The notes under the pieces were generated by a model. The model saw only the letters and a program-made list of their open reading frames with translations. It ran no database searches and was not told the DNA's origin. A stretch of DNA of 64,000 bases from Patescibacteria group bacterium (lineage in GTDB: Bacteria; Patescibacteriota; Minisyncoccia; Minisyncoccales; JAHCRE01). How positions within the stretch are numbered: position 1 is the first letter of the stretch; the number at the start of each line of letters is the position of its first letter. A program made the translations under genes and the position numbers. Of the stretch, positions 1-45,034 are shown in pieces. The DNA is taken from the NCBI GenBank assembly GCA_020148145.1, contig JAHCRE010000006.1, positions 6,368 through 70,367 on the forward strand, in the 5' to 3' direction.

Positions 1-1588
1 TAGCGCCGTTGTAAGTAACAGTGTAGCCCGATGAAGCATTTGTTGCAACAGTCATAGTATGAGCAGAGGTAGCAGTATCTGACCCGGTCGTATCTGTTGC
101 AAAACGAGCGTTGGCTGACACAAGAGTTCCAAAACCAATGCTCAAGTCTCCATCAATGGTAAAAGTTAAAGTTAGAGCAGCGGTCTTGATTGAAAGTTCA
201 GTGGCATTGGCTTTATGGCCGTAAGTATCGTAAGCCCAAATATTAAAGACATAATCTGTGTTAGCGGTAAGCCCAGAAACGGTTGTATTGGTGGTACTGT
301 TGTAGTCAATAAAGCCAAGATCTGCATCCGAATGCTCTGTATCACTTTCAGTAACGCCTGTAGTGCCTTGCTTGTAGTAAATGCGGTAGGTGCTAAAGTT
401 CGTTTCGGTCGTCTGGCTGCCAAAAGTTAAGGTAATACTGGAGGTCGTCTTGCCACCGTCGGTTAAATTTCCTGGCGCAGTTGGAGCAACATTATCAATA
501 GTTAGGGTTTGAGTAACTGGTGTGGTCTGGTCCACTGTATCGTCATTAACTGTCAGACGCAGACAATAAGTGCCGTTCCCGCTCGGCGCATCAGTAGCTG
601 AATTCCAATCAAATTGAACAGTGTTAGAGCCAGAAGAGGTGATAATTCTATAATCAGCCGTAGTCCCCACCTGATAAGTGTCAGCGTTAACTACTGAAGG
701 AGCCCCACCCGAATCATTAAAGTCTGCTGTTGCTCCTCCGGCTTCATCTAAAGTAGGGTCTAAGGGAGTAGCAAAATCACAAGTGCCATTAGCTACATAT
801 TCTATTTTGGCCTTAGTATCATCATCATTGGGGTCATCAACTTCAATAGAAATATCCACTGCCCCGGAACCATCGGTTTTTTGTGCTGCAGAATTAATAG
901 AGCCCGTTGGCGGGACGTTTGCTGGCGGCGTGTAGTATATCTCAATGGTTACATAGTCAACATCCACATCAGCATTATTCGCTGTAGCAAGAATACCAAT
1001 TGCTACACCAAAATTGGCATTCTTTACCCACGCAGCGTCCAGGGCATTGCCCCACAAATCTTCTGAAGTACCCTTGGTAATAATTGTTGTATCATCTTCG
1101 GTCAGCACTACGGGTGTAGCGCATTGATTCGTGCCGACTTTCGCTTTAGATGTATCAAGTAACTGAAGCAAATCCATTGAACCTGAACCCTGACCAGACC
1201 TATACCACGAATTAACGCGAACTATTACGCCGTTAATAGTAGAACCATCTAGAATTGCGCTGAAATCAAAGCCGGTTGCCTTCAAAACAGCTGTCTGGTC
1301 GCCGTTATCAAAATTCGCCGCAGTTACGTTTGCCGTAGCCCCATCATCAGCATAGATATTGGTAGGCGTATTCCAGCTATTATCACTCCAAGGTGATTCT
1401 TTTACCGACTCACCAAGAGTTGGATATACTTCTTCAGTAGTATCCGCCCGTGCTTCCGGAATTTCCGGCGGAATTGGTGGCTTTTTCCAAATCTGGGGCC
1501 AGCCAGAAAAAATCCAAACCGCCACCATTAAAAAGATAAGGCAAATCGCCAAAAAATTAGCTAAGGCATTTTTAATAATTTTAGCCAT
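1..1588 (-). CDS. Large secreted/cell-surface protein, 5' part only (runs off window start); signal-anchor plus fibronectin-III-like repeat
   Basis: Absent from ORF track because truncated. Own translation from ATG at 1588 gives MAKIIKNALANFLAICLIFLMVAVWIF... and stays open to base 1. FN3-like stretch APTAPGNL..SSITLTFG..YRIYYK..LTANTDYVFNIWAYDTYGH. Visibly more GC-rich than flanks. Confidence 0.75.
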   Translation of the reverse strand, partial: MAKIIKNALANFLAICLIFLMVAVWIFSGWPQIWKKPPIPPEIPEARADTTEEVYPTLGESVKESPWSDNSWNTPTNIYADDGATANVTAANFDNGDQTAVLKATGFDFSAILDGSTINGVIVRVNSWYRSGQGSGSMDLLQLLDTSKAKVGTNQCATPVVLTEDDTTIITKGTSEDLWGNALDAAWVKNANFGVAIGILATANNADVDVDYVTIEIYYTPPANVPPTGSINSAAQKTDGSGAVDISIEVDDPNDDDTKAKIEYVANGTCDFATPLDPTLDEAGGATADFNDSGGAPSVVNADTYQVGTTADYRIITSSGSNTVQFDWNSATDAPSGNGTYCLRLTVNDDTVDQTTPVTQTLTIDNVAPTAPGNLTDGGKTTSSITLTFGSQTTETNFSTYRIYYKQGTTGVTESDTEHSDADLGFIDYNSTTNTTVSGLTANTDYVFNIWAYDTYGHKANATELSIKTAALTLTFTIDGDLSIGFGTLVSANARFATDTTGSDTATSAHTMTVATNASSGYTVTYNGA

Positions 1589-1594
1589 TATTTT

Positions 1595-1603
1595 ATTTTA
1601 CCA
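1595..1603 (-). promoter_or_regulatory. Extended -10 box TGGTAAAAT, 6 nt upstream of the ATG (leaderless candidate)
   Basis: Minus strand reads TTTGGTAAAATAAAATAATG. Sits just after the terminator T-tract. Confidence 0.45.
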
Positions 1604-1624
1604 AATCAGAAACAAAAGCAAAGG

Positions 1625-1745
1625 CCCGAGAAAAACTCTCGGGTGGGGGCTTGCACTAAGCGTTGTCCAGGTGCTGCGGGGCCTGAACGCTGTTCGAACC
1701 TATTTTATGATACAAAACGGTATTTTGAGATACCAGTTTTGGCCA
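1625..1745 (-). repeat. Cassette-junction element copy A (family 1): terminator hairpin plus conserved 3' element
   Basis: Hairpin CCCGAGAG-TTTTT-CTCGGG at 1625-1643. Core GAACGCTGTTCGAACC at 1685-1700. About 80 nt alignable with copies at 6999-7110 and 11303-11415. Confidence 0.8.
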
Positions 1746-1774
1746 GTCCCTAATATACCCTATCCTCCTACTTA

Positions 1775-2053
1775 CTATTTCTTTCTTATTTTGATTGCTT
1801 TTCCATTGATTAAGGCTTCGGCTACTTTTTTACGAGCAGAAGTTAAAATTCGGCCTAAAGTGCTTTGAGAAATTTTCATTCTCTTAGCAGCTTTGATTTG
1901 GTTTAAACCTTTCAAATCACACAGTCTGATTGCTTCTAATTCATCTACGCCTAAATCAACTTCTTCTAACATAGAAAGAGGCACTGCCCTAGGCTTAAAA
2001 TATGTGACATTCGGATCAAACATGACCCTTCTTGGTTTTATTGGTCTTACCAT
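1775..2053 (-). CDS. DUF134/UPF0251-like small DNA-binding protein
   Basis: 92 aa. MVRPIKPRRV..FKPRAVP N-terminus and C-terminal HTH (MKISQSTLGRILTSARKKV), as I recall for DUF134. Last gene of the 4539-1775 operon. Confidence 0.65.
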   Translation of the reverse strand: MVRPIKPRRVMFDPNVTYFKPRAVPLSMLEEVDLGVDELEAIRLCDLKGLNQIKAAKRMKISQSTLGRILTSARKKVAEALINGKAIKIRKK

Positions 2054-2904
2054 AATTGATTGAGATTTTTAGAAATCTTTTTAATTTCTTTTTTAACTCT
2101 TAAATTGGTTTCTACGATTGGTTTTAAGTTGGCAATGGCTTTAAATATTTCCTTATCATAAGATATTTTGCCCAAAAATTTTTTGCCAGCCCACTTTTCT
2201 ATTTTATTGCTTAAACTTTTATAAATATCCCACTTATTAATTACTACACCATAAGGAATATTGAAATGATTAACTACTTTCAAAACTCTTTTTAAGTCAG
2301 TAAATCCAGAAGGAGTGGGTTCAGTAATCAGAATAGTAAAGTTTGCTCCCTGTAAAGAGGCAATCACTGGACAGCCGGTTCCAGGAGCGGAATCAATTAA
2401 CATTATTTCATAATTGAATTTTTCTGCTTCTTTTTTAATTTCGGTAACTACTTTACCAGACCCTGATTCTCCCGGATAAAGCTGACCAGAAATTAATGGA
2501 AAACCATATTTTGTTTTTTTAATTCTAATTTGGCCGTTTTGAACTGGTTTCAAAGAAATAGCTTTTTGGGGACAAATAACTTCACAAGCACCACAACCTT
2601 CACATAAAAATGGATTTAGTCGAGGTTTATCATTTACCATTTTTAATGCTTCAAATTTGCAATTTTTAACACAGAGGCTACAGCTATTGCATTTGTTTAA
2701 GTCAATCTCTGGCTTAGCCGAAGTAACCACTGGTAAAGTTTTATCCCATTTTTTTATTCCTCCTAACCAAATAGCTAAATTAGGGGCATCAACATCACAA
2801 TCTACAGCCGTAATCTTTTTCGATTTTCTAAAAAGCATTGCCAAAGCTGAAGTTAGCATCGATTTCCCTACTCCGCCTTTTCCAGAAGCTATAACTATTT
2901 TCAC
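2047..2904 (-). CDS. MinD/ParA-type P-loop ATPase with inserted 2x[4Fe-4S] ferredoxin motifs
   Basis: Deviant Walker A GKGGVGKS. CNSCSLCVKNC and CEGCGACEVICP cysteine clusters. Confidence 0.8.
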   Translation of the reverse strand: MKIVIASGKGGVGKSMLTSALAMLFRKSKKITAVDCDVDAPNLAIWLGGIKKWDKTLPVVTSAKPEIDLNKCNSCSLCVKNCKFEALKMVNDKPRLNPFLCEGCGACEVICPQKAISLKPVQNGQIRIKKTKYGFPLISGQLYPGESGSGKVVTEIKKEAEKFNYEIMLIDSAPGTGCPVIASLQGANFTILITEPTPSGFTDLKRVLKVVNHFNIPYGVVINKWDIYKSLSNKIEKWAGKKFLGKISYDKEIFKAIANLKPIVETNLRVKKEIKKISKNLNQLW

Positions 2905-2909
2905 ATTTC

Positions 2910-3740
2910 TTACAATTTTACTAATTCAAAATCGAGTAATTTCCCTTTTGAATAGGCCTCAACTAATTTTTTTGAATAAGGAATTTCTTTTTCTATTTTA
3001 ATTTTATATTTTTTGGCGATTTTTTGAATTTTCCTTTTATCTCCTAAATTAGCGTGATTCAAAATTATTTTGGCTGGCACCTTGAGTTTTTGGCATAAAT
3101 CCAAAATTAAATTCAAATCATAAGCTCCCATTGGAGTAGGTTCAGTAACAGCGTAAGCCAAATCACAACCCAAAAGAGCAGAAATTACTGGACAATGAGT
3201 ACCGGCAGCCGTATCAAATAAAAGAAAATCTGGCTTATTTTTCCTAACCAGATTTGAAACAAATTTTTTTGTTTTAGTAACTACAGGGCCTGTTTCCTCA
3301 AGGCCCGGTTTGGCAAGACCAGTTACTAGCCAATAGTCTTTCTCAATTTTATTTAAAAAGATTTGACCAATCTCTTCTTTTTTCGGCTGGATGGCTCCGT
3401 GTGGACAAACAATCCAGCAAGCTCCACAAGCTGAACATAGATCTTTAATAAATACTGGATATTTCTCTGGAGCTTGAAAAGCAGCATTATTTCGACAGAT
3501 TTCGACGCACAAACCACATTTTTTACATTTTCTTTTATTTAATTTTGGGAATTCAGCATAAACTTTCTTTTTGGATTTTTCTAATTTTTGACCCAATAAC
3601 AAATAATCATTAGGGCACTCCACATCACAATCACAAAGAATAACTTTCTTATCTTCTTTAATTAATTTATTAGCAAATAAGATAGTAATGGTACTTTTCC
3701 CAGTACCACCTTTGCCACCGGTAATAGCAATTTTTTGCAT
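2910..3740 (-). CDS. MinD/ParA-type P-loop ATPase with inserted 4Fe-4S motifs (paralog of 2047-2904)
   Basis: GGKGGTGKST Walker A. CKKCGLCVEIC and CSACGACWIVCP clusters. Confidence 0.8.
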   Translation of the reverse strand: MQKIAITGGKGGTGKSTITILFANKLIKEDKKVILCDCDVECPNDYLLLGQKLEKSKKKVYAEFPKLNKRKCKKCGLCVEICRNNAAFQAPEKYPVFIKDLCSACGACWIVCPHGAIQPKKEEIGQIFLNKIEKDYWLVTGLAKPGLEETGPVVTKTKKFVSNLVRKNKPDFLLFDTAAGTHCPVISALLGCDLAYAVTEPTPMGAYDLNLILDLCQKLKVPAKIILNHANLGDKRKIQKIAKKYKIKIEKEIPYSKKLVEAYSKGKLLDFELVKL

Positions 3741-3741
3741 G

Positions 3742-4071
3742 CTAAGTTGATTCTAATTCTCCTTTTTTAAATTTCTCCAAGGCCTCCTTGGCGGTTCCCG
3801 AAACCCCAGAAATTACTTTAATTCCCGATTGTTCTAGTACTGCTAAAGCATTAGGCCCAACATTGCCTACAATTACTACTTCTGCTTTTTCATTGGCAAC
3901 AGTCTGAGCAGCAGCAATTCCTGCTCCGCCCACTGCCTTTTTTGCTTCATTTTCTACTGTTTTAAATTCTTCGGTTTCCATATCTACAAATAAAAAATAA
4001 CTACATCTACCAAAAACTTGATCAATTGGAGAATCTAAATCAGGGCCAGTTGTACAAATACAAATTTTCAT
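3742..4071 (-). CDS. NifX/NifB-C-terminal-like (dinitrogenase FeMo-cofactor-binding fold) small protein
   Basis: 109 aa. MKICI...FGRCSYFLFVD...GAGIAAAQ..VIVGNVGPNA pattern typical of that family. Confidence 0.65.
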   Translation of the reverse strand: MKICICTTGPDLDSPIDQVFGRCSYFLFVDMETEEFKTVENEAKKAVGGAGIAAAQTVANEKAEVVIVGNVGPNALAVLEQSGIKVISGVSGTAKEALEKFKKGELEST

Positions 4072-4076
4072 AAATT

Positions 4077-4289
4077 TTATTTAGCCCTAGTCATTGAAGT
4101 GCCACATTTTGGGCATTTATAAGTATAACAAGGTGTCCCTCTTCCGTGAGGAACTTTGGTCCCACAATTCGGACAGATACATTCTCCCCCGGGTCCTAAA
4201 CCAAAACCACCAGGTTGTCGACCCCGACCACCTCTTCCGGGCGCTCTAAATCTCCCACCAGGAGGAATTGAAGGAATTCTCTTTGGCAT
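4077..4289 (-). CDS. Gly/Arg-rich zinc-ribbon protein
   Basis: 70 aa. GRGGRGRQPGGFGLGPGG followed by CPNCG...CPKCG. Confidence 0.55.
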   Translation of the reverse strand: MPKRIPSIPPGGRFRAPGRGGRGRQPGGFGLGPGGECICPNCGTKVPHGRGTPCYTYKCPKCGTSMTRAK

Positions 4290-4290
4290 G

Positions 4291-4539
4291 TTATTTTTTT
4301 CCTTTTTTAGTTTCTAACTCTCTTAATCTTTCTTCAATGGCTTTCATTTCCTCTCGTAAGGCCTTAAGCTCTTCCAAAAGCATCTCTTTTTCTTCTTTCG
4401 GAGTAGGCTCTTGCCAATTCTCAGGATAAGCCCACCACCAACGAGGAAGCCAAGGAAATCTAAAACATCTTCCCCCATATCTTCTTAAATCTCTTTGATT
4501 GTAAGCCCACCAAGGACCACCACCATAACCAAAAGGCAT
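4291..4539 (-). CDS. DUF5320-like protein (Trp/Arg-rich N-terminus, C-terminal coiled coil)
   Basis: 82 aa. Ends EEKEMLLEELKALREEMKAIEERLRELE. First gene of the operon. Confidence 0.5.
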   Translation of the reverse strand: MPFGYGGGPWWAYNQRDLRRYGGRCFRFPWLPRWWWAYPENWQEPTPKEEKEMLLEELKALREEMKAIEERLRELETKKGKK

Positions 4540-4588
4540 AATATTATAATCTATTAATTGCTATTACTTTTTCGACCTTTCTATTATG

Positions 4589-4617
4589 ATTATAAACCCA
4601 TAACTATGTCTTGTCAA
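4589..4617 (-). promoter_or_regulatory. Sigma70-type promoter TTGACA-17-TATAAT for the 4539-1775 operon
   Basis: Minus strand reads CCTTGACAAGACATAGTTATGGGTTTATAATC. Confidence 0.55.
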
Positions 4618-4635
4618 GGTTTATTTATCCACAAT

Positions 4636-4672
4636 TAAAAAAAATCGCTAAGGGGATTTTTCCGGTAGCGAT
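4636..4672 (-). terminator. Rho-independent terminator after 4727-5227
   Basis: ATCGCTA...TAGCGAT stem followed by T8 on the minus strand. Confidence 0.5.
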
Positions 4673-4726
4673 TTGTAACGAATACTTGCGAAAGAACAAT
4701 TTTATCCACTGTTGGACGAGAGGCAC

Positions 4727-5227
4727 TTATTTTATTCTTGCTGTCTGTTCCCTGATTATATTCATTACTTCTTCTGGTTTTTCAGTTGAAAAAACAAACT
4801 CTTTAAATCTACCTTTCTTCAATAAAAGCACAACTCGAGGAGCTCCTATAACATTATACACTAATCTCCATTTTCCCTTAACTCTTCCTATGCGTATGCC
4901 CCAACCTCCATATCTAATTATTGAGGCTTCGTCTAAATAACAATTCTTAATATTCTCCCAGGTGATGATGTGCCTAAAAATCCCATAACTGACCTTGACA
5001 GACAGATGAGTTATTCTAATGCTTAGCCTACTAAAATTAATCGTCACGCCTAAAAACAATAGAAACATAAGTAGGAAAAACCAGTTTGAAGCGGGACGAG
5101 TACCAACTGGTCCTACCAAAATTTGATAGACCAATACAAAAAGAAATCCAGCTGTAAAAGCGGTCAATATACTCGTCATCCACCACTTCGAGGATATCTT
5201 TTCTTCGTAGAGGTTACTTCTCTGCAT
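4727..5227 (-). CDS. Membrane protein, two TM helices plus small C-terminal soluble domain
   Basis: 166 aa ORF. Hydrophobic segments ILTAFTAGFLFVLVYQIL and WFFLLMFLLFLGV. Confidence 0.55.
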   Translation of the reverse strand: MQRSNLYEEKISSKWWMTSILTAFTAGFLFVLVYQILVGPVGTRPASNWFFLLMFLLFLGVTINFSRLSIRITHLSVKVSYGIFRHIITWENIKNCYLDEASIIRYGGWGIRIGRVKGKWRLVYNVIGAPRVVLLLKKGRFKEFVFSTEKPEEVMNIIREQTARIK

Positions 5228-5254
5228 TTTTTTTACCTAAACAATAAAAAAACT

Positions 5255-5479
5255 CTAAAAGAAAGCATACAATACAGCCATTGCCAGCGTGATAAATAGA
5301 GTCATACCAATCCAAAGTTTAGCACCAACTCTCCTTGTTATGTATCCAATATAAAGAAACACTGGAATTAAATATAAGGGCACCACATTCAGCGGTTTGT
5401 ATATTACATTCTTAAAAATTATTATCAATCCTATCATGAGAGCAGCTGTAACTATTGCTGTTTTTGTTTCATCTTTCAT
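5255..5479 (-). CDS. Small integral membrane protein
   Basis: 74 aa, three hydrophobic helices. Co-oriented just upstream of 4727-5227. Confidence 0.45.
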   Translation of the reverse strand: MKDETKTAIVTAALMIGLIIIFKNVIYKPLNVVPLYLIPVFLYIGYITRRVGAKLWIGMTLFITLAMAVLYAFF

Positions 5480-7806: not shown

Positions 7807-7862
7807 AGAACTCCTTTCCCCCTTAATTTTTTATCAAAGAACTATCTTATTCTTACACCTTA

Positions 7863-7892
7863 ATTATACTATATAATTTTCTATCTTGTCAA
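7863..7892 (-). promoter_or_regulatory. Sigma70-type promoter TTGACA-18-TATAAT
   Basis: Minus strand reads CTTGACAAGATAGAAAATTATATAGTATAATTA. Confidence 0.5.
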
Positions 7893-7894
7893 GC

Positions 7895-8100
7895 GGCGGC
7901 TCTCAGAAAGACGGGGCGGGGCGGAAATAAAAAAGATAAAATGTGAGGCCTTTCGGTCATCCGAAATGCTCACAAGCCTGCTCGGACTATTGGACGATTT
8001 TAGAACCTTAAGATGGGAAGACGTGTTTAAATATCCTGAGGTTGTATTAGGACAGATGAGGGAATTGTGTAAACGATGCTAGGACCTGATTTATGAGGTT
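7895..8100 (-). repeat. Cassette-junction element copy D (family 2)
   Basis: Core GGACGATTTTAGAACC at 7992-8007. Terminator-like hairpin at 7943-7973. About 80 nt alignable with 8641-8780. Confidence 0.75.
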
Positions 8101-8619
8101 TTAATCTAAATATGAATCTATAACTTTCCAAGTAATTTCACCCCCATCTGAAACCGTATATTCAAGCAACATATATCCCCCAATGTGTCCATCTTCAAAC
8201 CAAGCCAAAACCCATTTTTTTGTTAAAATCCATATATTATCTTTACTGTAAAAACCCATAGTGCCTCCCAGAATACCTTCATATGGTATCAACTCTGAAT
8301 GTTGCATAAGGTCAGATTTTAAATCGTTAACAGGGTCTATCAATCCTTTCTTTTTTAGCTCATCAATTTCCCAACTCCATAATTTGGGATCACTTTCTAA
8401 GCATCCTTCTCTTTGTTCTAATAATTCATTAATTTGCCGCTGCAAATCCTCCTTTTCCCTCTTCTCTTGTTCAAATTGAGCCTGTAATTCACTTATCTGT
8501 TGTCCCATCTCAGATTTTACACCCTCTAAAGCAGATTTTTGCCACAAATAGACACCGCTCGCCACTAAAACGATAATAATCAATAAAATGATTCCCTTTG
8601 CAATATCTTTGTTTTCCAT
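8101..8619 (-). CDS. Membrane-anchored protein with coiled coil
   Basis: 172 aa. N-terminal TM helix GIILLIIIVLVASGVYLW, then a Q/E-rich helix. Confidence 0.6.
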   Translation of the reverse strand: MENKDIAKGIILLIIIVLVASGVYLWQKSALEGVKSEMGQQISELQAQFEQEKREKEDLQRQINELLEQREGCLESDPKLWSWEIDELKKKGLIDPVNDLKSDLMQHSELIPYEGILGGTMGFYSKDNIWILTKKWVLAWFEDGHIGGYMLLEYTVSDGGEITWKVIDSYLD

Positions 8620-10416: not shown

Positions 10417-10734
10417 CTAATCTGCACAAAGCATTTCTTCTGGGCGTTCGGGATCCCAGAAATAACAACCAGTCCATCTTCCTGAACAGAACCAGTTCTT
10501 TCCATCTTTAGAGATGCAACGCTCATCTTCAGGACAATCGGTGTGTAAGCTACAAGGTTTCTGTGAGTCTGGAGCACAATAAGGACCAGAGAGAGAACCA
10601 AATTTTTTGTATCCTTCGGGACACCGCAAAAGTTTGTAGCGGATTGGTATAAAAAAGGGGGAATTATAGATGAACCATCCACCGATTATAATTATTCCAA
10701 CTATTAAAATGACAATTAAGGTTTTTGTGGTCAT
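10417..10734 (-). CDS. Small secreted/membrane-anchored Cys-rich protein
   Basis: 105 aa. N-terminal TM helix LIVILIVGIIIIGGWFIY, then 8 Cys. Confidence 0.55.
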   Translation of the reverse strand: MTTKTLIVILIVGIIIIGGWFIYNSPFFIPIRYKLLRCPEGYKKFGSLSGPYCAPDSQKPCSLHTDCPEDERCISKDGKNWFCSGRWTGCYFWDPERPEEMLCAD

Positions 10735-10742
10735 ATTATCTA

Positions 10743-10748
10743 ATTATA
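10743..10748 (-). promoter_or_regulatory. -10 TATAAT, 8 nt upstream of the ATG (leaderless candidate)
   Basis: Minus strand reads GGTATAATTAGATAATATG. Confidence 0.45.
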
Positions 10749-10772
10749 CCTCAAATCGTCCGCAAACCAAAA

Positions 10773-10915
10773 CCCCGAGAAAAACTCTCGAGGGCGGGCG
10801 GAAATAAAAAAGCTCCCCCTATTGGACGCATTCAGAACTGTCAATTGGAAAAGAATTAGAGAGGAATTGGAAGAATTAGGGCTTAGTTTAGGGATTCAAT
10901 TAGCTCCTGTAAAGA
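10773..10915 (-). repeat. Cassette-junction element copy F (family 2-like)
   Basis: Hairpin CTCGAGAGTTTTTCTCGGGG at 10773-10792. Core GGACGCATTCAGAACT at 10824-10839. Confidence 0.7.
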
Positions 10916-10916
10916 T

Positions 10917-11195
10917 TTAAATAAAAAAATTCGGGCGGTCAGTTTTCTGAAACGCCCTTTGAATTTGGTTAAGTAAGTCCTGGAGTCTCCTTGGGGGTTC
11001 TTTTGTTTCTTTAATCCTTTTTAATGCTGGAATCCAAATGAAATTTCCACCGCAAAATCTGCAACTCGGGTCGTTTCCTTCCTTAATCTTTTTGAATCCA
11101 TACTGGCTTGCTGTATGGCCTGTTTTTCCTTCTACTACAATCCCCTCGCATTCAAACTCTGCACCGCAACCTTTACATCTGTATCTCTCGCTCAT
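10917..11195 (-). CDS. Small zinc-ribbon protein
   Basis: 92 aa. CKGCG...CRFCG. Confidence 0.5.
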   Translation of the reverse strand: MSERYRCKGCGAEFECEGIVVEGKTGHTASQYGFKKIKEGNDPSCRFCGGNFIWIPALKRIKETKEPPRRLQDLLNQIQRAFQKTDRPNFFI

Positions 11196-12914: not shown

Positions 12915-13709
12915 TTAAAGTACCTTGTTATCTCGAATAAATTTAAGTTGTTTTGTCCAATCCATTAGATTGCCTTCTACCCTACTAAGATCCCGATCTG
13001 ACAATGGATTATGATGGGCAATAATACGTCTTGATGGTATAGTTTCATCTAGTTTCGATAATAACCATTCGGTTTTTCTCCTTTGATTTTTCAAATACTT
13101 ATTAAAAATTCTATTATGGCTCTTCAAAATTAAAATTAAATCTCCAAAATCAGAATAATATATTGGATGATCGCCCCTTTTACCGTGCCAGGCTCTTCGC
13201 TTTTCTTCTTTCATTCGCTCTTTTACTCTAGTCATGATTTCAGAAAGTTTTTTGGTATTCATTTTTGTCGGCCACCAATCTGAACCAAATTCTTTTTCTA
13301 AGACTTTATTTATAAAATTTCTAATAGAATTTTCAAAAATATAAAGTACAAGATATGCTTTTCCTGCCATTTTTACTGCGTCTTTTTTCACCGAATTTGG
13401 CAACAAAGGTTCATTGATTATACCAAATTGGGTCTTAATTGGCCTCGACACAGAGGATCTAGCCTTATAGTATAGTCTTCTTTTTTTCTCAGATTGAGAA
13501 ACTTGAATTGCACTAGCTATTTTACTCTGTTCTTTTAGGGAAAGTTTCTTAAGTTCCCTTGAATAGCCCACATTATTTTCTGCAGCCAGAATAAAAATAG
13601 CCTCTTTTGAAGTAAGACCAAGAGGTCTTCCTCTTTGCCAAATTCTTTTCTTTAGAGCGACCACTGTGGAAGATCTAAGTTTTTTTTGAAGACGTTCAAG
13701 AAGAGTCAT
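12915..13709 (-). CDS. Swt1-like HEPN domain protein (predicted RNase)
   Basis: 264 aa. C-terminal half FENSIRNFINKVLEKEFGSDWW...YSDFGDLILIL...SRRIIAHHNPL fits the HEPN Rx4-6H motif and the Swt1-type layout as I recall it. Confidence 0.6.
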   Translation of the reverse strand: MTLLERLQKKLRSSTVVALKKRIWQRGRPLGLTSKEAIFILAAENNVGYSRELKKLSLKEQSKIASAIQVSQSEKKRRLYYKARSSVSRPIKTQFGIINEPLLPNSVKKDAVKMAGKAYLVLYIFENSIRNFINKVLEKEFGSDWWPTKMNTKKLSEIMTRVKERMKEEKRRAWHGKRGDHPIYYSDFGDLILILKSHNRIFNKYLKNQRRKTEWLLSKLDETIPSRRIIAHHNPLSDRDLSRVEGNLMDWTKQLKFIRDNKVL

Positions 13710-14860: not shown

Positions 14861-15469
14861 TTATATACCCAACTTAAAGGTCTCAAGCACATCCACTCTA
14901 TGACCATCGGGCGGTAATCCACCTTTAATTATATTGATTTGACTGACAAGCATTTTCCCAAACGAAATTTCTTGGTAGTTTTTCTTGATGGTTTCAAATA
15001 ATTCAGTAGGCTCTTCGTAGAAATAAATTACTGCAACGTGGGGCATATAATTATTTCCCTCAAATTCGGGATACTCGCTAAAAGGAATTGCATTGTTTAA
15101 TCGCTTATGTAACTCAAAGAGTTTGTCGTCAGGAGAAAAAACCTGCACAAATATATTATTGGGAAATTGACTAAATCCTTTAAGTTCTACCTCAAATGGT
15201 TGAAATCCAACCAATGCTTCTTTAGTTTTTTTAATAACATCTGGTATTACAGATTCTTGAATCTGTTTTCTCAACAAACCACAGGATTTAACAGTGCAGT
15301 GATACATATCCTGAGGTACATAATCTTGATTCGGAAATTTTTCTCTCAGAAGTTGGGCAATTTCACTGATTTTCTCTTTTAAAGGAGGTGAAATCCAAAA
15401 ATTAAGAGATAAATCATTGAATTCTGGAATAGGATTATTCTTATTTCTTAGAAATATCTTATTTTTCAT
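14861..15469 (-). CDS. 2H phosphoesterase superfamily protein (LigT / 2'-5' RNA ligase-like)
   Basis: 202 aa. Two H-x-T/A-type motifs (YHCTVK and PHVAVIYF) with appropriate spacing. Confidence 0.55.
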   Translation of the reverse strand: MKNKIFLRNKNNPIPEFNDLSLNFWISPPLKEKISEIAQLLREKFPNQDYVPQDMYHCTVKSCGLLRKQIQESVIPDVIKKTKEALVGFQPFEVELKGFSQFPNNIFVQVFSPDDKLFELHKRLNNAIPFSEYPEFEGNNYMPHVAVIYFYEEPTELFETIKKNYQEISFGKMLVSQINIIKGGLPPDGHRVDVLETFKLGI

Positions 15470-15533: not shown

Positions 15534-15562
15534 GTAGCTAATTTTGAGTTAAAAATTGAGTG

Positions 15563-15633
15563 CTGGAGGGGTAGGATTCGAACCTACATTACGGGTTCCA
15601 GAGACCCGCTGCCTACCGTTAGCAGACCCTCCA
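15563..15633 (-). tRNA. tRNA-Gln (anticodon CUG)
   Basis: Hand-folded cloverleaf. Acceptor stem UGGAGGG/CCCUCCA with U1:A72, anticodon loop CUCUGGA, T arm GUAGG-UUCGAAU-CCUAC, G73. CCA not encoded. Confidence 0.85.
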
Positions 15634-22807: not shown

Positions 22808-23177
22808 GTCCTAGTAAGTCGGGTGATTGCGGATCGTTTTTACGATCTGAGGAAAGTCCGAACACCCATTTCCATCGCTGAGACGGATCTAAAAAGATAG
22901 CGGTTAACAACCGTCGATCGTAAGATTAGAGGTGCGAACAGAGACGCCGAGGCTCGAAAGGGTCGAGGCGCCCTCCGAAGCCAAAGGCCTCGGAGGGCGA
23001 GTTCAGCCTAAAGGCTGAGGTGAAACGGCTAAATCCTTATCGGGTGCAAGAACAAACCAAAGTTCTGCTAAATCTTGTAGAACTCTTGGAAAAGTAGTTC
23101 GCCTGAGCCCAGTGGTAACATTGGGCCTAGAGAGATAATCACTTAAAACAGAATTCGGCTTATGGACTTACTAGGAC
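22808..23177 (+). ncRNA. rnpB: RNase P RNA (bacterial type)
   Basis: P1 stem GTCCTAGTAAGTC/GACTTACTAGGAC. Universal GAGGAAAGTCCGAACAC near the 5' end and ACAGAATTCGGCTTAT near the 3' end. Confidence 0.9.
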
Positions 23178-23180
23178 ATT

Positions 23181-23216: not shown

Positions 23217-23660
23217 TTAGACTAATTTCTGAGTCTTTGCTCGAATATTGAGAGCTTCATTTACCAGCCTATCGGCCTCTTTATTTTTTTCTCGAGAAAT
23301 GAGTTTAAATTTAACTTTTTTAAAATCAATTTTTAGGTTCCAGGCTTTTAAAAAAAGAGGTTGAATTTTTGAATCTAAAATTTTGAATTGACCTCGCAAT
23401 TGTTTTACTAAAAGCTCTGAATCTGATCTTAATTCGATTTCTGAGTTTTTGGCTAATTTTTTTCCAAAAAGAGCCTTAAATTTTTTCAAAGCAGAAATGC
23501 AAGCTAAATACTCAGCCTCGTTATTTGTAAAATTCTCACCCAAATACTGAGAGTATTTTTTTATCATCTGACCCTTTTCATTACAAAACAAAGCTCCAAT
23601 GGCCGCCGGCCCAGGATTACCCCTGGAACCTCCGTCGATGTAAATTATTATCTTTTTCAT
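23217..23660 (-). CDS. rnhA: Ribonuclease HI
   Basis: Start set at the internal ATG (MKKIIIYIDGGSRGNPGPAAIG...). NNEAEY and the ADRL motif are present. The upstream part of the 214-aa track ORF is read-through of a repeat element. Confidence 0.85.
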   Translation of the reverse strand: MKKIIIYIDGGSRGNPGPAAIGALFCNEKGQMIKKYSQYLGENFTNNEAEYLACISALKKFKALFGKKLAKNSEIELRSDSELLVKQLRGQFKILDSKIQPLFLKAWNLKIDFKKVKFKLISREKNKEADRLVNEALNIRAKTQKLV

Positions 23661-23695
23661 AGGTTTAAAAGTATACTTTATATTAAAATCTGACA

Positions 23696-23846
23696 GTAAT
23701 CCTGGGCCACAGAAAGGGGTCGGGAAAACTGGGTGTTTTCCCGTAGTGGAAGTATTGAAACCGCAAGGTTTCAAGGAGCGAAGCGAAGCCCCGAAGGGGC
23801 GCTCGAGCCGAAGGCGAGAGAGAGTGGAGCGACGGCCCAGGATTAC
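23696..23846 (-). repeat. GC-rich multi-hairpin repeat, family X copy Z (inverted relative to the X1/X2 copies)
   Basis: Bounded by the 13-bp inverted repeat GTAATCCTGGGCC (23696-23708) / GGCCCAGGATTAC (23834-23846). Its reverse complement aligns with 47213-47351. Confidence 0.75.
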
Positions 23847-23886
23847 CTCTTGAGCCTCCATCTATGTAAATAATAATTTTTTTCAT
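23834..23886 (-). pseudogene. Duplicated 5' fragment of rnhA (codons 1-18)
   Basis: ATGAAAAAAATTATTATTTACATAGATGGAGGCTCAAGAGGTAATCCTGGGCC versus the real gene at 23608-23660. 8 differences, all synonymous third positions. Confidence 0.7.
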
Positions 23887-30225: not shown

Positions 30226-30292
30226 TATATCTTTATATCACAGTTAAAAAGATATGTCAAGAAATTTTAGAGCTTTTAAGAACCTCCTTATG

Positions 30293-30457
30293 CGGGGACG
30301 GCGAGACTCGAACTCGCAACTCTCCCCTACCAAATCTGCGGGTCCGATGGGATTTGAACCCACGATTTTCGGTTCGACAAACCGACGTGTTAAACCTAGC
30401 TACACTACGGACCCATTTTGGTGGGGGGGGTGTTCTAACCAATTGAACTACGTCCCC
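30293..30457 (-). tRNA. tRNA-Trp-like gene interrupted in its anticodon arm by about 88-100 nt that contains tRNA-Asp
   Basis: 5' part at 30457-30415 (GGGGACG acceptor strand, GUUC-AAUUGGUUA-GAAC D arm, C8, ACCAAAAU). 3' part at 30338-30293 (..UUUGGUAGGGG, GCGAG-UUCGAGU-CUCGC T arm, CGUCCCC acceptor strand, G73). Anticodon assignment is uncertain. Confidence 0.55.
30339..30414 (-). tRNA. tRNA-Asp (anticodon GUC)
   Basis: Hand-folded, fully canonical. GGGUCCG/CGGACCC acceptor stem, GUGU/ACAC D stem, UCGGU-UUGUCGA-ACCGA anticodon arm, GUGGG-UUCAAAU-CCCAU T arm, G73. Confidence 0.9.
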
Positions 30458-30459
30458 TA

Positions 30460-30533
30460 TGCCGAGGGTGGGGTTCGAACCCACGACTTTCGCCTTATGA
30501 GTGCGATGCTCTAACCAACTGAGCTACCCCGGC
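30460..30533 (-). tRNA. tRNA with CAU anticodon, elongator type (Met or lysidine-modified Ile2)
   Basis: GCCGGGG/CCUCGGC acceptor stem with G1:C72, loop CUCAUAA, T arm GUGGG-UUCGAAC-CCCAC, A73. Confidence 0.8.
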
Positions 30534-30573
30534 ATTATTCCAAGTCGTTTCTGCAATTTGGAAAATCAATTTG

Positions 30574-30644
30574 TTGCGCCGCCTGGAATTGCACCAGGGT
30601 CTTCAGCTTATGAGACTGACGAGGTACTACTCCTCTACGGCGCG
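30574..30644 (-). tRNA. Initiator-like tRNA-fMet (CAU) with atypical D and T loops
   Basis: C1xA72 mismatch, A11:U24, A73, loop CUCAUAA. However the T loop is UGCAAUU (not UUC), the D loop AGUAGUA lacks GG, and the anticodon stem has no 3xG:C. Confidence 0.7.
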
Positions 30645-30686
30645 CCATTTGAAAATCGTATCATAAAAATTAGAATAAAGTCAAGT

Positions 30687-44329: not shown

Positions 44330-45034
44330 TTATTTACCTTCACCTGTTTCACCTTGAGTTTCAATTATCTTTTTAAAATTTTCCCAACTAACATCTCCCT
44401 CTCCTGTCATCAAACAAATTTCTTTAAACTGACAGTATTGACACTGCCAATTCTCTGGCCATTCTGGAATTCTCGGGGGAATGATATTGGAATCAATTTT
44501 TGTTTTAAGGTCAGATAGTACTTTTAAAAGAGATTGGGCTCGATTCGAATCGTAATTAATCAAAAATTCTTTTAATTCTTGAGTGTCTTTATTAACATAA
44601 AGCAATATTCCCTTTTTAGGATCTAAATAATGAAGATAAAGTTGAATTTGATCAATATGTTCTTTTTTTGGCTGATTTAAATTTTTAAAAACCATGCTAT
44701 TCATACTTTTAATATCAAGTATATACAAATCTTTGCCATCGCTAATTACTGCGTCGGCCCTTCCTCTGATTAATTCTCGGGGAGGAATATCTACTTCTGA
44801 AGCTACTACATGAGCCTCTTTCGTGCTAAGGAGAGGTTTCATGATAAGGCGATGAATAGAATCACCGTGATCAAACAACCTCAAAACCCTTGCCTCTATT
44901 TCTTCTCTGGGGACTTTTTTAAATTTAAAAAATATTGCTCGTGAGCATTTTCCAGCATCAGAAATATAAAAATGATGCTGTTCTCTATCTCTCTGTCTAT
45001 CCAAATAAAATTTATTAATAAGTTCTTTTAACAT
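44330..45034 (-). CDS. PD-(D/E)XK nuclease, Cas4/RecB-like with Cys cluster
   Basis: 234 aa. GKCSR near the N-terminus, GRADAV..LDIKS..QIQLY core, C-terminus CQYCQFKEIC. Confidence 0.7.
   Translation of the reverse strand: MLKELINKFYLDRQRDREQHHFYISDAGKCSRAIFFKFKKVPREEIEARVLRLFDHGDSIHRLIMKPLLSTKEAHVVASEVDIPPRELIRGRADAVISDGKDLYILDIKSMNSMVFKNLNQPKKEHIDQIQLYLHYLDPKKGILLYVNKDTQELKEFLINYDSNRAQSLLKVLSDLKTKIDSNIIPPRIPEWPENWQCQYCQFKEICLMTGEGDVSWENFKKIIETQGETGEGK

Follow-up and report, generated by a model that had tools for sequence, protein, structure and literature searches.

A tRNA-Asp gene nested in the anticodon arm of a tRNA-Trp-like shell in a Patescibacteria genome

Disrupted transfer RNA (tRNA) genes, whether interrupted by introns, split, or permuted, are known mainly from Archaea and eukaryotes, and to our knowledge the sole accepted tRNA interruption in Bacteria is the self-splicing intron. 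In Haloferax and Pyrococcus, the intron of tRNA-Trp carries a box C/D guide RNA; it is located at position 37/38 in a bulge-helix-bulge frame, is cut by the splicing endonuclease, and the halves are religated by RtcB. Split and permuted tRNA genes occur in Nanoarchaeum equitans, Caldivirga, and Cyanidioschyzon and have been reviewed (PMC4033280, PMC3978253). In the Patescibacteria, tRNA genes are reported to carry group I introns in their anticodon loops (PMC13011429); standard tRNA finders miss the host gene. Here we describe a locus at which one tRNA cloverleaf is encoded within another. It lies on the minus strand, at 30457-30293 (165 nt), of a 64,000-nt stretch of DNA from a Patescibacteria group bacterium (GenBank assembly GCA_020148145.1, contig JAHCRE010000006.1, positions 6,368 to 70,367 of the forward strand), which is referred to as the window and to which all coordinates refer unless a relative is named. 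The explanation that we consider probable is that the 165 nt form a composite cassette, inherited as a unit, in which the anticodon loop of a non-decoding shell derived from tRNA-Trp(CCA) has given way to a fully functional tRNA-Asp(GUC) gene. A first-pass annotation of the window, made from the letters alone, knew of no bacterial tRNA within a tRNA, and our literature search likewise found no published counterpart of a tRNA gene nested in the anticodon arm of another tRNA. The nested arrangement is real, unusual, and apparently undescribed.

Read on the minus strand, the unit consists of three segments: 30457-30415, GGGGACGTAGTTCAATTGGTTAGAACACCCCCCCCACCAAAAT; 30414-30339, the tRNA-Asp gene with anticodon GTC; and 30338-30293, CAGATTTGGTAGGGGAGAGTTGCGAGTTCGAGTCTCGCCGTCCCCG. 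The nesting of a tRNA-Asp in a tRNA-Trp-like gene that the first-pass annotation proposed is thus present in the DNA base for base. The two outer segments, here called the shell, are colinear on the same strand and 92 nt apart; the 92-nt insert is a tRNA plus short linkers, and it follows position 38. The shell acceptor stem (GGGGACG/CGTCCCC) has 7 bp of perfect complementarity and the D arm has 4 bp and the loop AATTGGTTA, and all pairs of its arms are formed in the window (acceptor, 7/7; D, 4/4; T, 5/5). A connector helix of 10 to 12 bp stands in place of the anticodon loop and carries the Asp cloverleaf on top. We interpret this helix as composed of the shell's anticodon stem and of what was once its anticodon loop (C-A-CCA-AA), the latter paired with a matching stretch located 3' of Asp. 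The intron-like complementarity of the flanks that had been pointed out earlier, ACCAAA with TTTGGT, holds, and the pairing also covers the anticodon. Both the minimum-free-energy and the centroid RNAfold structures of 167 nt are exactly the nested double cloverleaf (-64.9 kcal/mol; z = -4.06), and 0 of 200 shuffled sequences fold as well. The features of the locus are listed in Table 1.

Table 1. Features of the tRNA cluster, the nested unit, and the gene downstream of it
Feature	Position in window	Strand	Basis or remark
Promoter-like site (TTGACT, 18-nt spacer, TACGAT, upstream TG)	30655..30684	-	Consensus scan; putative role as cluster promoter
tRNA-Met(CAT), initiator type, C1/A72 mismatch	30573..30644	-	First in cluster; ARAGORN; Rfam tRNA, 57.4 bits
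Second tRNA(CAT)	30459..30534	-	Ends 1-2 nt before shell +1; ARAGORN; Rfam tRNA, 69.2 bits
Shell 5' half	30415..30457	-	Sequence, fold, deletion scan, E. coli tRNA-Trp match
Shell acceptor 5' strand, GGGGACG	30457-30451	-	Followed by U8 A9
Shell D arm	30448-30432	-	Followed by A26
Shell C8 run	30430-30423	-	
Shell ACCAAA	30422-30417	-	Contains the CCA "anticodon"; A at position 33
AT, unpaired leader of Asp	30416-30415	-	
Inner tRNA-Asp(GTC), 76 nt, probable functional gene, no encoded CCA	30339..30414	-	ARAGORN, Rfam, pair counts
CAGA, unpaired trailer of Asp	30335..30338	-	Internal loop with AT leader (fold); lineage variable (CTAAA in L008)
Connector helix 3' strand, TTTGGT-A-GGGG	30324..30334	-	Base-paired to ACCAAA and to four of the C8 residues (fold, pair counts)
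Remainder of shell 3' half	30293..30323	-	A43, variable loop GAGTT onward; sequence, fold, E. coli tRNA-Trp match
Shell T arm, GCGAG TTCGAGT CTCGC	30317-30301	-	5 bp, loop TTCGAGT
Shell acceptor 3' strand, CGTCCCC	30300-30294	-	G73 at 30293
sigma70_r4/HARE-HTH gene	30225-29206	-	Downstream of cassette
sigma70_r4/HARE-HTH promoter (putative)	30232..30260	-	TTGACA (30260-30255) and TATAAA (30237-30232), 17 nt apart; TG at the end of the spacer

The inner gene has the properties of an ordinary tRNA. ARAGORN predicted tRNA-Asp(gtc) at 30338-30414, and the Rfam tRNA model (RF00005) gave it 66.8 bits against a gathering score of 29. When the three copies of the cassette described below were aligned, with a 44-nt hairpin of one lineage removed, 21/21 pairs of the inner tRNA-Asp were intact in all copies, and its helices contained four compensatory double changes and no broken pair. 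The inner gene is therefore under selection for structure, and these counts make tRNA-Asp(GUC) most likely the functional gene of the locus.

The outer gene, by comparison with this inner one, was not called as a tRNA by ARAGORN, either in default mode or with introns of 0 to 200 nt allowed, nor by Rfam; lowering the ARAGORN threshold produced only spurious Ser and Phe calls on the opposite strand. When Asp and varying lengths of its flanks were deleted in silico, ARAGORN called a tRNA for most of the cuts and tRNA-Trp(CCA) for several, indicating that the scaffold of the shell is a genuine tRNA frame. To identify it, the spliced shell with seven loop positions masked was compared by BLAST to 5,426 complete Escherichia coli genomes. 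It gave one match per genome, annotated as tRNA-Trp, in 5,407 of the 5,426 genomes and no match to tRNA-Asp or any other tRNA in them, in accord with the Trp-like character first assigned to the outer gene. The loop of the shell, CACCAAA, agrees at 6 of 7 positions with CUCCAAA, which we take to be the E. coli tRNA-Trp loop. The masked search and the C-A-CCA-A-A loop together indicate that the shell is derived from tRNA-Trp. A loose scan of genome contigs with the 5' half had suggested an Asp-like shell: among the matches listed were ordinary tRNA-Asp genes from Planctomycetota and others, and the pattern used left out Trp genes that start with A1. This identity was overturned by the loop-masked search, which matched tRNA-Trp alone. 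A resemblance of the shell to transfer-messenger RNA (tmRNA) or Y RNA was also rejected, as all Rfam matches were subthreshold (permuted tmRNA, 11.1 bits, E = 5.1), and a split or permuted tRNA gene is ruled out by the colinear halves on one strand.

The window belongs to an 89-kb scaffold, and a protein encoded next to the cassette is identical to MBZ9571810.1 (locus tag KJA15_00510). Syntenic loci in other genomes, denoted here by L numbers, were retrieved via the sigma-like gene beside the cassette. The same nested cassette is present in L008 (ENA ERZ27247117) and in L009/L010 (JGI 3300015370), L010 being the same contig as L009, and the sigma-like protein of this lineage shares 68% identity with that of the window. 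A scan of JGI metagenome contigs for the junction between the D arm and Asp returned only the L009/L010 contig. The shell 5' half in L008/L009 reads GGGGACGTAACTTAATTGGTCAGAGCA-TCCCC-CACCAAA-AT, in exact canonical register and without the two extra Cs of the window, and the 3' flank, CTAAATTGGTGG, pairs with the shell loop. These copies differ from the window by a 44-nt hairpin between G53 and T54 of the shell T arm and by the mismatches A5.C68 and A10.C25. L008 encodes CCA after G73, and its shell lies 45 nt from the upstream tRNA. After removal of AT, Asp, CTAAATTGGTGG, and the 44-nt hairpin, the shells of this lineage remain just below the ARAGORN default and are called as tRNA-Trp(CCA) at 95% of the threshold.

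These copies bear on the possibility that the locus is an assembly chimera or a chance resemblance, a doubt that the first-pass annotation had raised as misassembly. The window is part of a metagenome-assembled genome, and a C8 homopolymer is prone to length errors. However, three assemblies made independently of one another and from different samples share the architecture (ENA ERZ23498930, also at NCBI with locus tags KJA15_; ENA ERZ27247117; and JGI 3300015370), which rules out chance and misassembly; the copies also differ by compensatory substitutions, and the z score of the fold is -4.06. An artifact thus has practically no chance of being the explanation.

Conservation among relatives, which had been proposed as a check, turned out to be partial. 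The arrangement recurs in L008 and L009, but a plain tRNA-Asp gene occupies the locus in L001, L002, L004, L005, L007, L131, and L134, and it starts 1 to 2 nt after the second tRNA(CAT) gene in L001, L004, and L005. L185 also has no shell 3' half; its contig begins 3 nt before Asp, with the 5' side outside. By sequence comparison, L001, L002, and L004 are close sisters of the window: their second tRNA(CAT) genes are 93 to 97% identical to that of the window, and fourfold-degenerate sites are 61 to 63% identical. The Asp genes of the sisters are 97 to 99% identical to one another, and the window Asp is 75 to 76% identical to them and nearest to the nested Asp of the distant L008 (85%). In alignments to the sisters, one insert block of 43 to 44 nt lies between Met and Asp and a second of about 45 nt lies between the end of Asp (...CCGC) and CA(T/G/A)AAGG, both with conserved flanks. 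Two clean insert blocks around a divergent Asp within conserved flanks indicate that the cassette and the plain Asp gene are alternative alleles of one locus. Such alleles appear to have been exchanged by recombination among related Patescibacteria lineages. The absence of the cassette from the sisters further implies that the shell is dispensable to close relatives.

In L007, an intact Asp gene is immediately preceded, at 2855-2918, by part of the 5' half of a tRNA-Asp (GGACCCGTAGTTTTAGCCCGGTTTAACAC...) and then CCCCACACCATAAAATTTTTT; the acceptor stem of the intact gene is a different one, a further sign of Asp gene replacement at the locus. A hairpin of L007 between Met and Asp (CTCCAAAATTGC-GAA-GCAATTTTGGAG) was considered as a relic of the Trp loop and rejected, as no tRNA halves flank it. 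The open reading frame (ORF) beside the L008 cassette encodes a beta-propeller protein, not one of a mobile element, and a search with it gave no close homologue. Neither of two scans of viral contigs yielded more than chance 15-mer matches, and a BLAST search of phage genomes gave no match.

The first-pass annotation suggested that the outer gene could be a working tRNA-Trp whose halves are rejoined after release of Asp, with the caveat that it could be a pseudogene. Such a gene would use a tRNA as its intron: ribonuclease (RNase) P and RNase Z would excise Asp, and once the leftover 2 nt and 11 to 12 nt had been trimmed away, position 38 would be ligated to position 39 by an RNA ligase, yielding the tRNA-Trp(CCA) of the cell. 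The derivation of the shell from tRNA-Trp, its exact register and encoded CCA in L008, and the pairing of the 3' flank with the anticodon loop, as in protein-spliced tRNA introns, are in line with this scheme, as are the lack of another tRNA-Trp in the 74 kb of contig considered below, the use of TGG codons, and a gene in the window for a LigT/2H phosphoesterase. This gene ("2'-5' RNA ligase" superfamily; 14861-15469, minus strand) adjoins tRNA-Gln(CTG) at 15562-15633; the substrates of LigT are cyclic-phosphate ends, whereas cleavage by RNase P or RNase Z yields ends of another kind.

The structure of the shell argues against this scheme. U33 is near universal in tRNAs, and position 33 of the shell is A in both lineages. 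The shell has no free 7-nt loop: CACCAAA is paired with TTTGGT(G), burying the anticodon in a helix. The C8 tract and A33 are as first described; relative to the standard register, the C run of the window has two extra Cs, and its length differs between the lineages. RNase P and RNase Z would produce 3'-OH and 5'-P ends away from the exon borders, and the direct junction of these ends gave no cloverleaf acceptable to ARAGORN, since 11 to 13 nt more must go first. In L008, the 44-nt T-loop insert would also have to be removed, and the acceptor and D stems have mismatches; pair-breaking changes have accumulated in the shell but not in the inner Asp. The bulge-helix-bulge motif (two 3-nt bulges and a 4-bp helix) is absent from the exon-intron borders, as judged by inspection of sequence and fold; the borders instead form a 1x2 or bulged-A site and an internal loop of 2-3 x 5-6 nt, 6 to 7 bp apart. 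A search of the window with RF00028 (group I) was negative both at the gathering score and with the cutoff relaxed to E <= 10, and with no catalytic core either, self-splicing is excluded; the earlier statement that neither a bulge-helix-bulge nor a group I intron is present was therefore confirmed. Neither a splicing endonuclease nor an RtcB/Rnl-type or Trl1-type ligase was found among the 50 window proteins scanned against Pfam. Finally, the closest sisters have no shell at the locus, and the published survey lists ordinary tRNA-Trp genes, as detailed below. A spliced tRNA-Trp is accordingly very improbable, and the pseudogene caveat is the more likely of the two early readings of the outer gene.

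Two sets of observations weigh against a non-decoding remnant. The first concerns the supply of tRNA-Trp. TGG codons are in use in the genome, and no other tRNA-Trp is present in 74 kb of its contig (the window and a further 10 kb). tRNA-Trp is often located upstream of secE-nusG, which lies outside this region; L138, which reaches tuf and fusA, contains no tRNA, and none of the relative loci retrieved contains a tRNA-Trp. Because the tRNA-Trp of the sisters must lie elsewhere, the genome of the window probably has that copy too. In the part of Table S2 of the Patescibacteria survey that was considered, every complete genome has an ordinary tRNA-Trp in one or two copies (PMC13011429). Within that part of the table, expendable duplicates therefore exist and no surveyed genome relies on a hidden Trp gene.

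The second set concerns the conservation of the shell. Its halves are 85% and 80% identical between the two cassette lineages, as high as the inner Asp (85%), although the neighboring tRNA-Met is only 74% identical between them and fourfold-degenerate sites of the adjacent gene are 38% identical, against about 30% expected at saturation. The nucleotides conserved universally in tRNAs (U8, A14, G18, G19, A21, T54, T55, C56, A58, C61, and G73) are all kept in both lineages, as is the A15-U48 pairing, and the D-stem pair 11:24 has changed on both sides. This conservation suggests purifying selection, as for a structural role, and would not be expected of a dead remnant; it could also reflect a cassette younger than the split of its hosts or conversion by a normal Trp gene.

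This raises the possibility that the shell is a selected, non-decoding tRNA-like RNA, serving as an RNase P site for the upstream tRNA, as a chaperone or gate for Asp maturation, or, once Asp has been released, as a tRNA mimic in two pieces. Its conservation equals that of the functional inner tRNA in spite of near-saturated neutral sites in the neighboring gene, its tertiary-interaction nucleotides are all kept in both lineages with one compensatory change in the D stem, and 12/12 shell substitutions outside the linker are transitions. In the window, shell +1 follows the upstream tRNA by 2 nt, which is the spacing of Asp in the sister genomes. On the other hand, the sister genomes manage without a shell, and the argument from trimming of the upstream tRNA fails in L008, where the shell is 45 nt away. 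L008 also tolerates a 44-nt hairpin in the T loop. In the three-copy alignment, the shell shows one double change (11:24), three changes to wobble pairs on one side only, and mismatches at five pairs in one or the other lineage; of its one-sided stem changes, roughly half keep the pair and half break it, the outcome expected if selection were absent. Linker and flank positions presumed to be neutral are few and differ at about 33%, compared with about 17% in the shell, a weak contrast. Losses of the pseudogene type (the anticodon loop, five mismatched pairs in one lineage, the 44-nt insert, and a 2-nt indel) stand beside an identity that is still 80 to 85%. The pair counts suggest that the shell is, at best, under weaker selection than the inner Asp. 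A selected shell is a minority possibility, though one to be taken seriously; the composite cassette with a non-decoding shell remains the reading that we prefer.

The connector helix could also have had a separate origin, as a copy of a C-rich palindromic hairpin module of the clade (CCCCCCACCAAA...TTTGGTGGGGGG) that landed in a tRNA gene and later gained Asp apically. Near-identical hairpins occur on both strands, in the group I intron hairpin of L134 (734-760) and in L132 (33-58) and L136 (32-57), and in L134 (6447-6548) copies in inverted orientation enclose, at long range, an AT-rich insert of 77 nt. The family thus recurs both in group I introns and in an intergenic element of relatives that resembles an RNA. 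Against this origin, the body of the shell is independently Trp-like and its loop is in exact Trp register in L008, so that Trp ancestry suffices to explain CACCAAA; RNA elements in AT-rich genomes can be expected to have GC-rich stems; one insertion would have had to follow another; and outside coding sequence the motif occurs only once in the 64-kb window. We consider this origin unlikely. Further members of the hairpin family, CCCCC(C)ACCAAA...TTTGGTG(A)GGGGG, lie at about 2687 in L136 and about 2617 in L137. The C-rich hairpin may be a mobile module, or these may merely be convergent GC-rich stems.

Under the composite-cassette reading, a single transcript that starts from the promoter-like site (30684-30655) would span both tRNA(CAT) genes and the unit that follows them. 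RNase P, whose class A RNA is encoded at 22811-23178, would cut at shell +1, thereby also freeing the 3' end of the upstream tRNA, and again at Asp +1. As Asp has no encoded CCA, its 3' end would be cleaved by an endonuclease or trimmed by exonucleases before the CCA-adding enzyme completes it. The shell halves would stay paired as a nicked, tRNA-shaped by-product without an anticodon loop and would not be rejoined into a decoder. The shell would be a slowly decaying remnant, its fold perhaps kept since it holds the leader and trailer of Asp and supplies an RNase P site, and the cassette would be passed on as a unit, swapping with the plain Asp allele at the locus by recombination.

The tRNA cluster is located downstream of gatC, gatA, and an ORF of 167 amino acids on the minus strand, and no terminator-like site was found within it. 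The strong putative promoter of the sigma70_r4/HARE-HTH gene, whose layout is kept in L001, L002, L004, and L185, marks the downstream boundary of the cassette. As its -10 box ends 6 nt before the ATG (30225), the mRNA of this gene is probably leaderless.

In several relatives, the same cluster contains other insertions. A group I intron interrupts the anticodon loop of the initiator tRNA in L002 (2649-2945; RF00028, 74.9 bits), in L134 (492-789; 85.3 bits), and in L005 (about 1836-2062), the last read from its resemblance to the L002 sequence and without an Rfam match; the initiator tRNA of the window has no intron. An ORF of about 229 amino acids with an N-terminal helix-turn-helix follows the initiator tRNA in L002 and L005 and may be a free-standing homing-endonuclease-like gene. 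In L001 (3615-3783) and L007 (2494-2674), the tRNA(CAT) genes are separated by a GC-rich insert, about 170 nt long. Both inserts contain TAAGGGAA(A)GGGGT(C/T)GGG(G)AAAC and GCGTTAGAAACCG and have no significant Rfam match (best E = 0.27); they may be a small RNA or another inserted element.

Away from the cluster, a structured-looking conserved intergenic element lies between the DUF8128 and TrwB-like genes in L008 (5356-5565), L134 (6337-6561), and L136 (2575-2735). It reads ...CAGGGAGCACGCNGTCGGC...GCTATTNCTCG, a variable hairpin, and CTGCGNAATGC, and matches no Rfam family; the window lacks it, its DUF8128 and TrwB-like genes being directly adjacent. The minus strand of the window also encodes a Swt1-like HEPN domain protein (12915-13709), an RNase H/RVT_3 domain protein (23217-23861) beside the RNase P RNA gene, and a Cas4-like PD-(D/E)XK nuclease (44330-45034) beside ribosomal protein genes. 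In L138, ribosomal protein genes of the S10 and spc operons are separated by unusually long gaps of 300 to 490 nt without tRNA (2819-3245, 3874-4362, 7827-8139, and 10561-10979). By the offset from L138, positions 1-5336 of the window reach about 5.3 kb past the start of the ENA scaffold_51 record, and given this overhang the window must derive from a version of the contig that is longer or was joined in another way.

The cassette points to the rearrangement and exchange of tRNA genes as small cassettes in reduced genomes, and it would be a natural substrate that presents RNase P with two nested tRNA folds. Shells of this kind are overlooked by standard tRNA finders. A functional shell would begin a new chapter for RNA processing in Bacteria. 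In the very improbable event that the tRNA does act as an intron, RNase P and RNase Z would stand in for the splicing endonucleases and some bacterial RNA ligase would join the trimmed exon ends; no tRNA splicing pathway that depends on proteins and RNase P would have been known in Bacteria before.

Compared with the systems described at the outset, the locus combines familiar elements in a different way. As in the archaeal tRNA-Trp intron, a functional RNA is nested 3' of the anticodon, and part of the insertion pairs with the anticodon loop; in contrast, the host is bacterial, the insertion follows position 38, the nested RNA is a tRNA, there is no bulge-helix-bulge, and rejoining is unlikely. 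The group I introns of Patescibacteria occur in the same phylum and at the same kind of site, including the initiator tRNA genes of relatives of this very locus, but they are usually longer than 200 nt, whereas the insert here is 92 nt of tRNA and linkers without a catalytic core. As in split and permuted tRNAs, two encoded pieces meet through base pairing; those genes, however, have separate loci or a permuted order together with a bulge-helix-bulge, and the halves here are colinear, 92 nt apart, and would be on one transcript. The shell is like tmRNA in that the acceptor and T arms are formed by its two ends, with a long helix in place of the anticodon arm that leads to an internal domain; it is unlike tmRNA in having G3-C70 instead of G3.U70, no tag reading frame, no ARAGORN tmRNA call, and a complete D arm. 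Lastly, polycistronic tRNA precursors and the stems of ribosomal RNA operons resemble the cassette in the proposed release by RNase P and a 3' nuclease, with complementary flanks that are discarded; at this locus, the discarded flanks would be the two halves of a complete tRNA cloverleaf.

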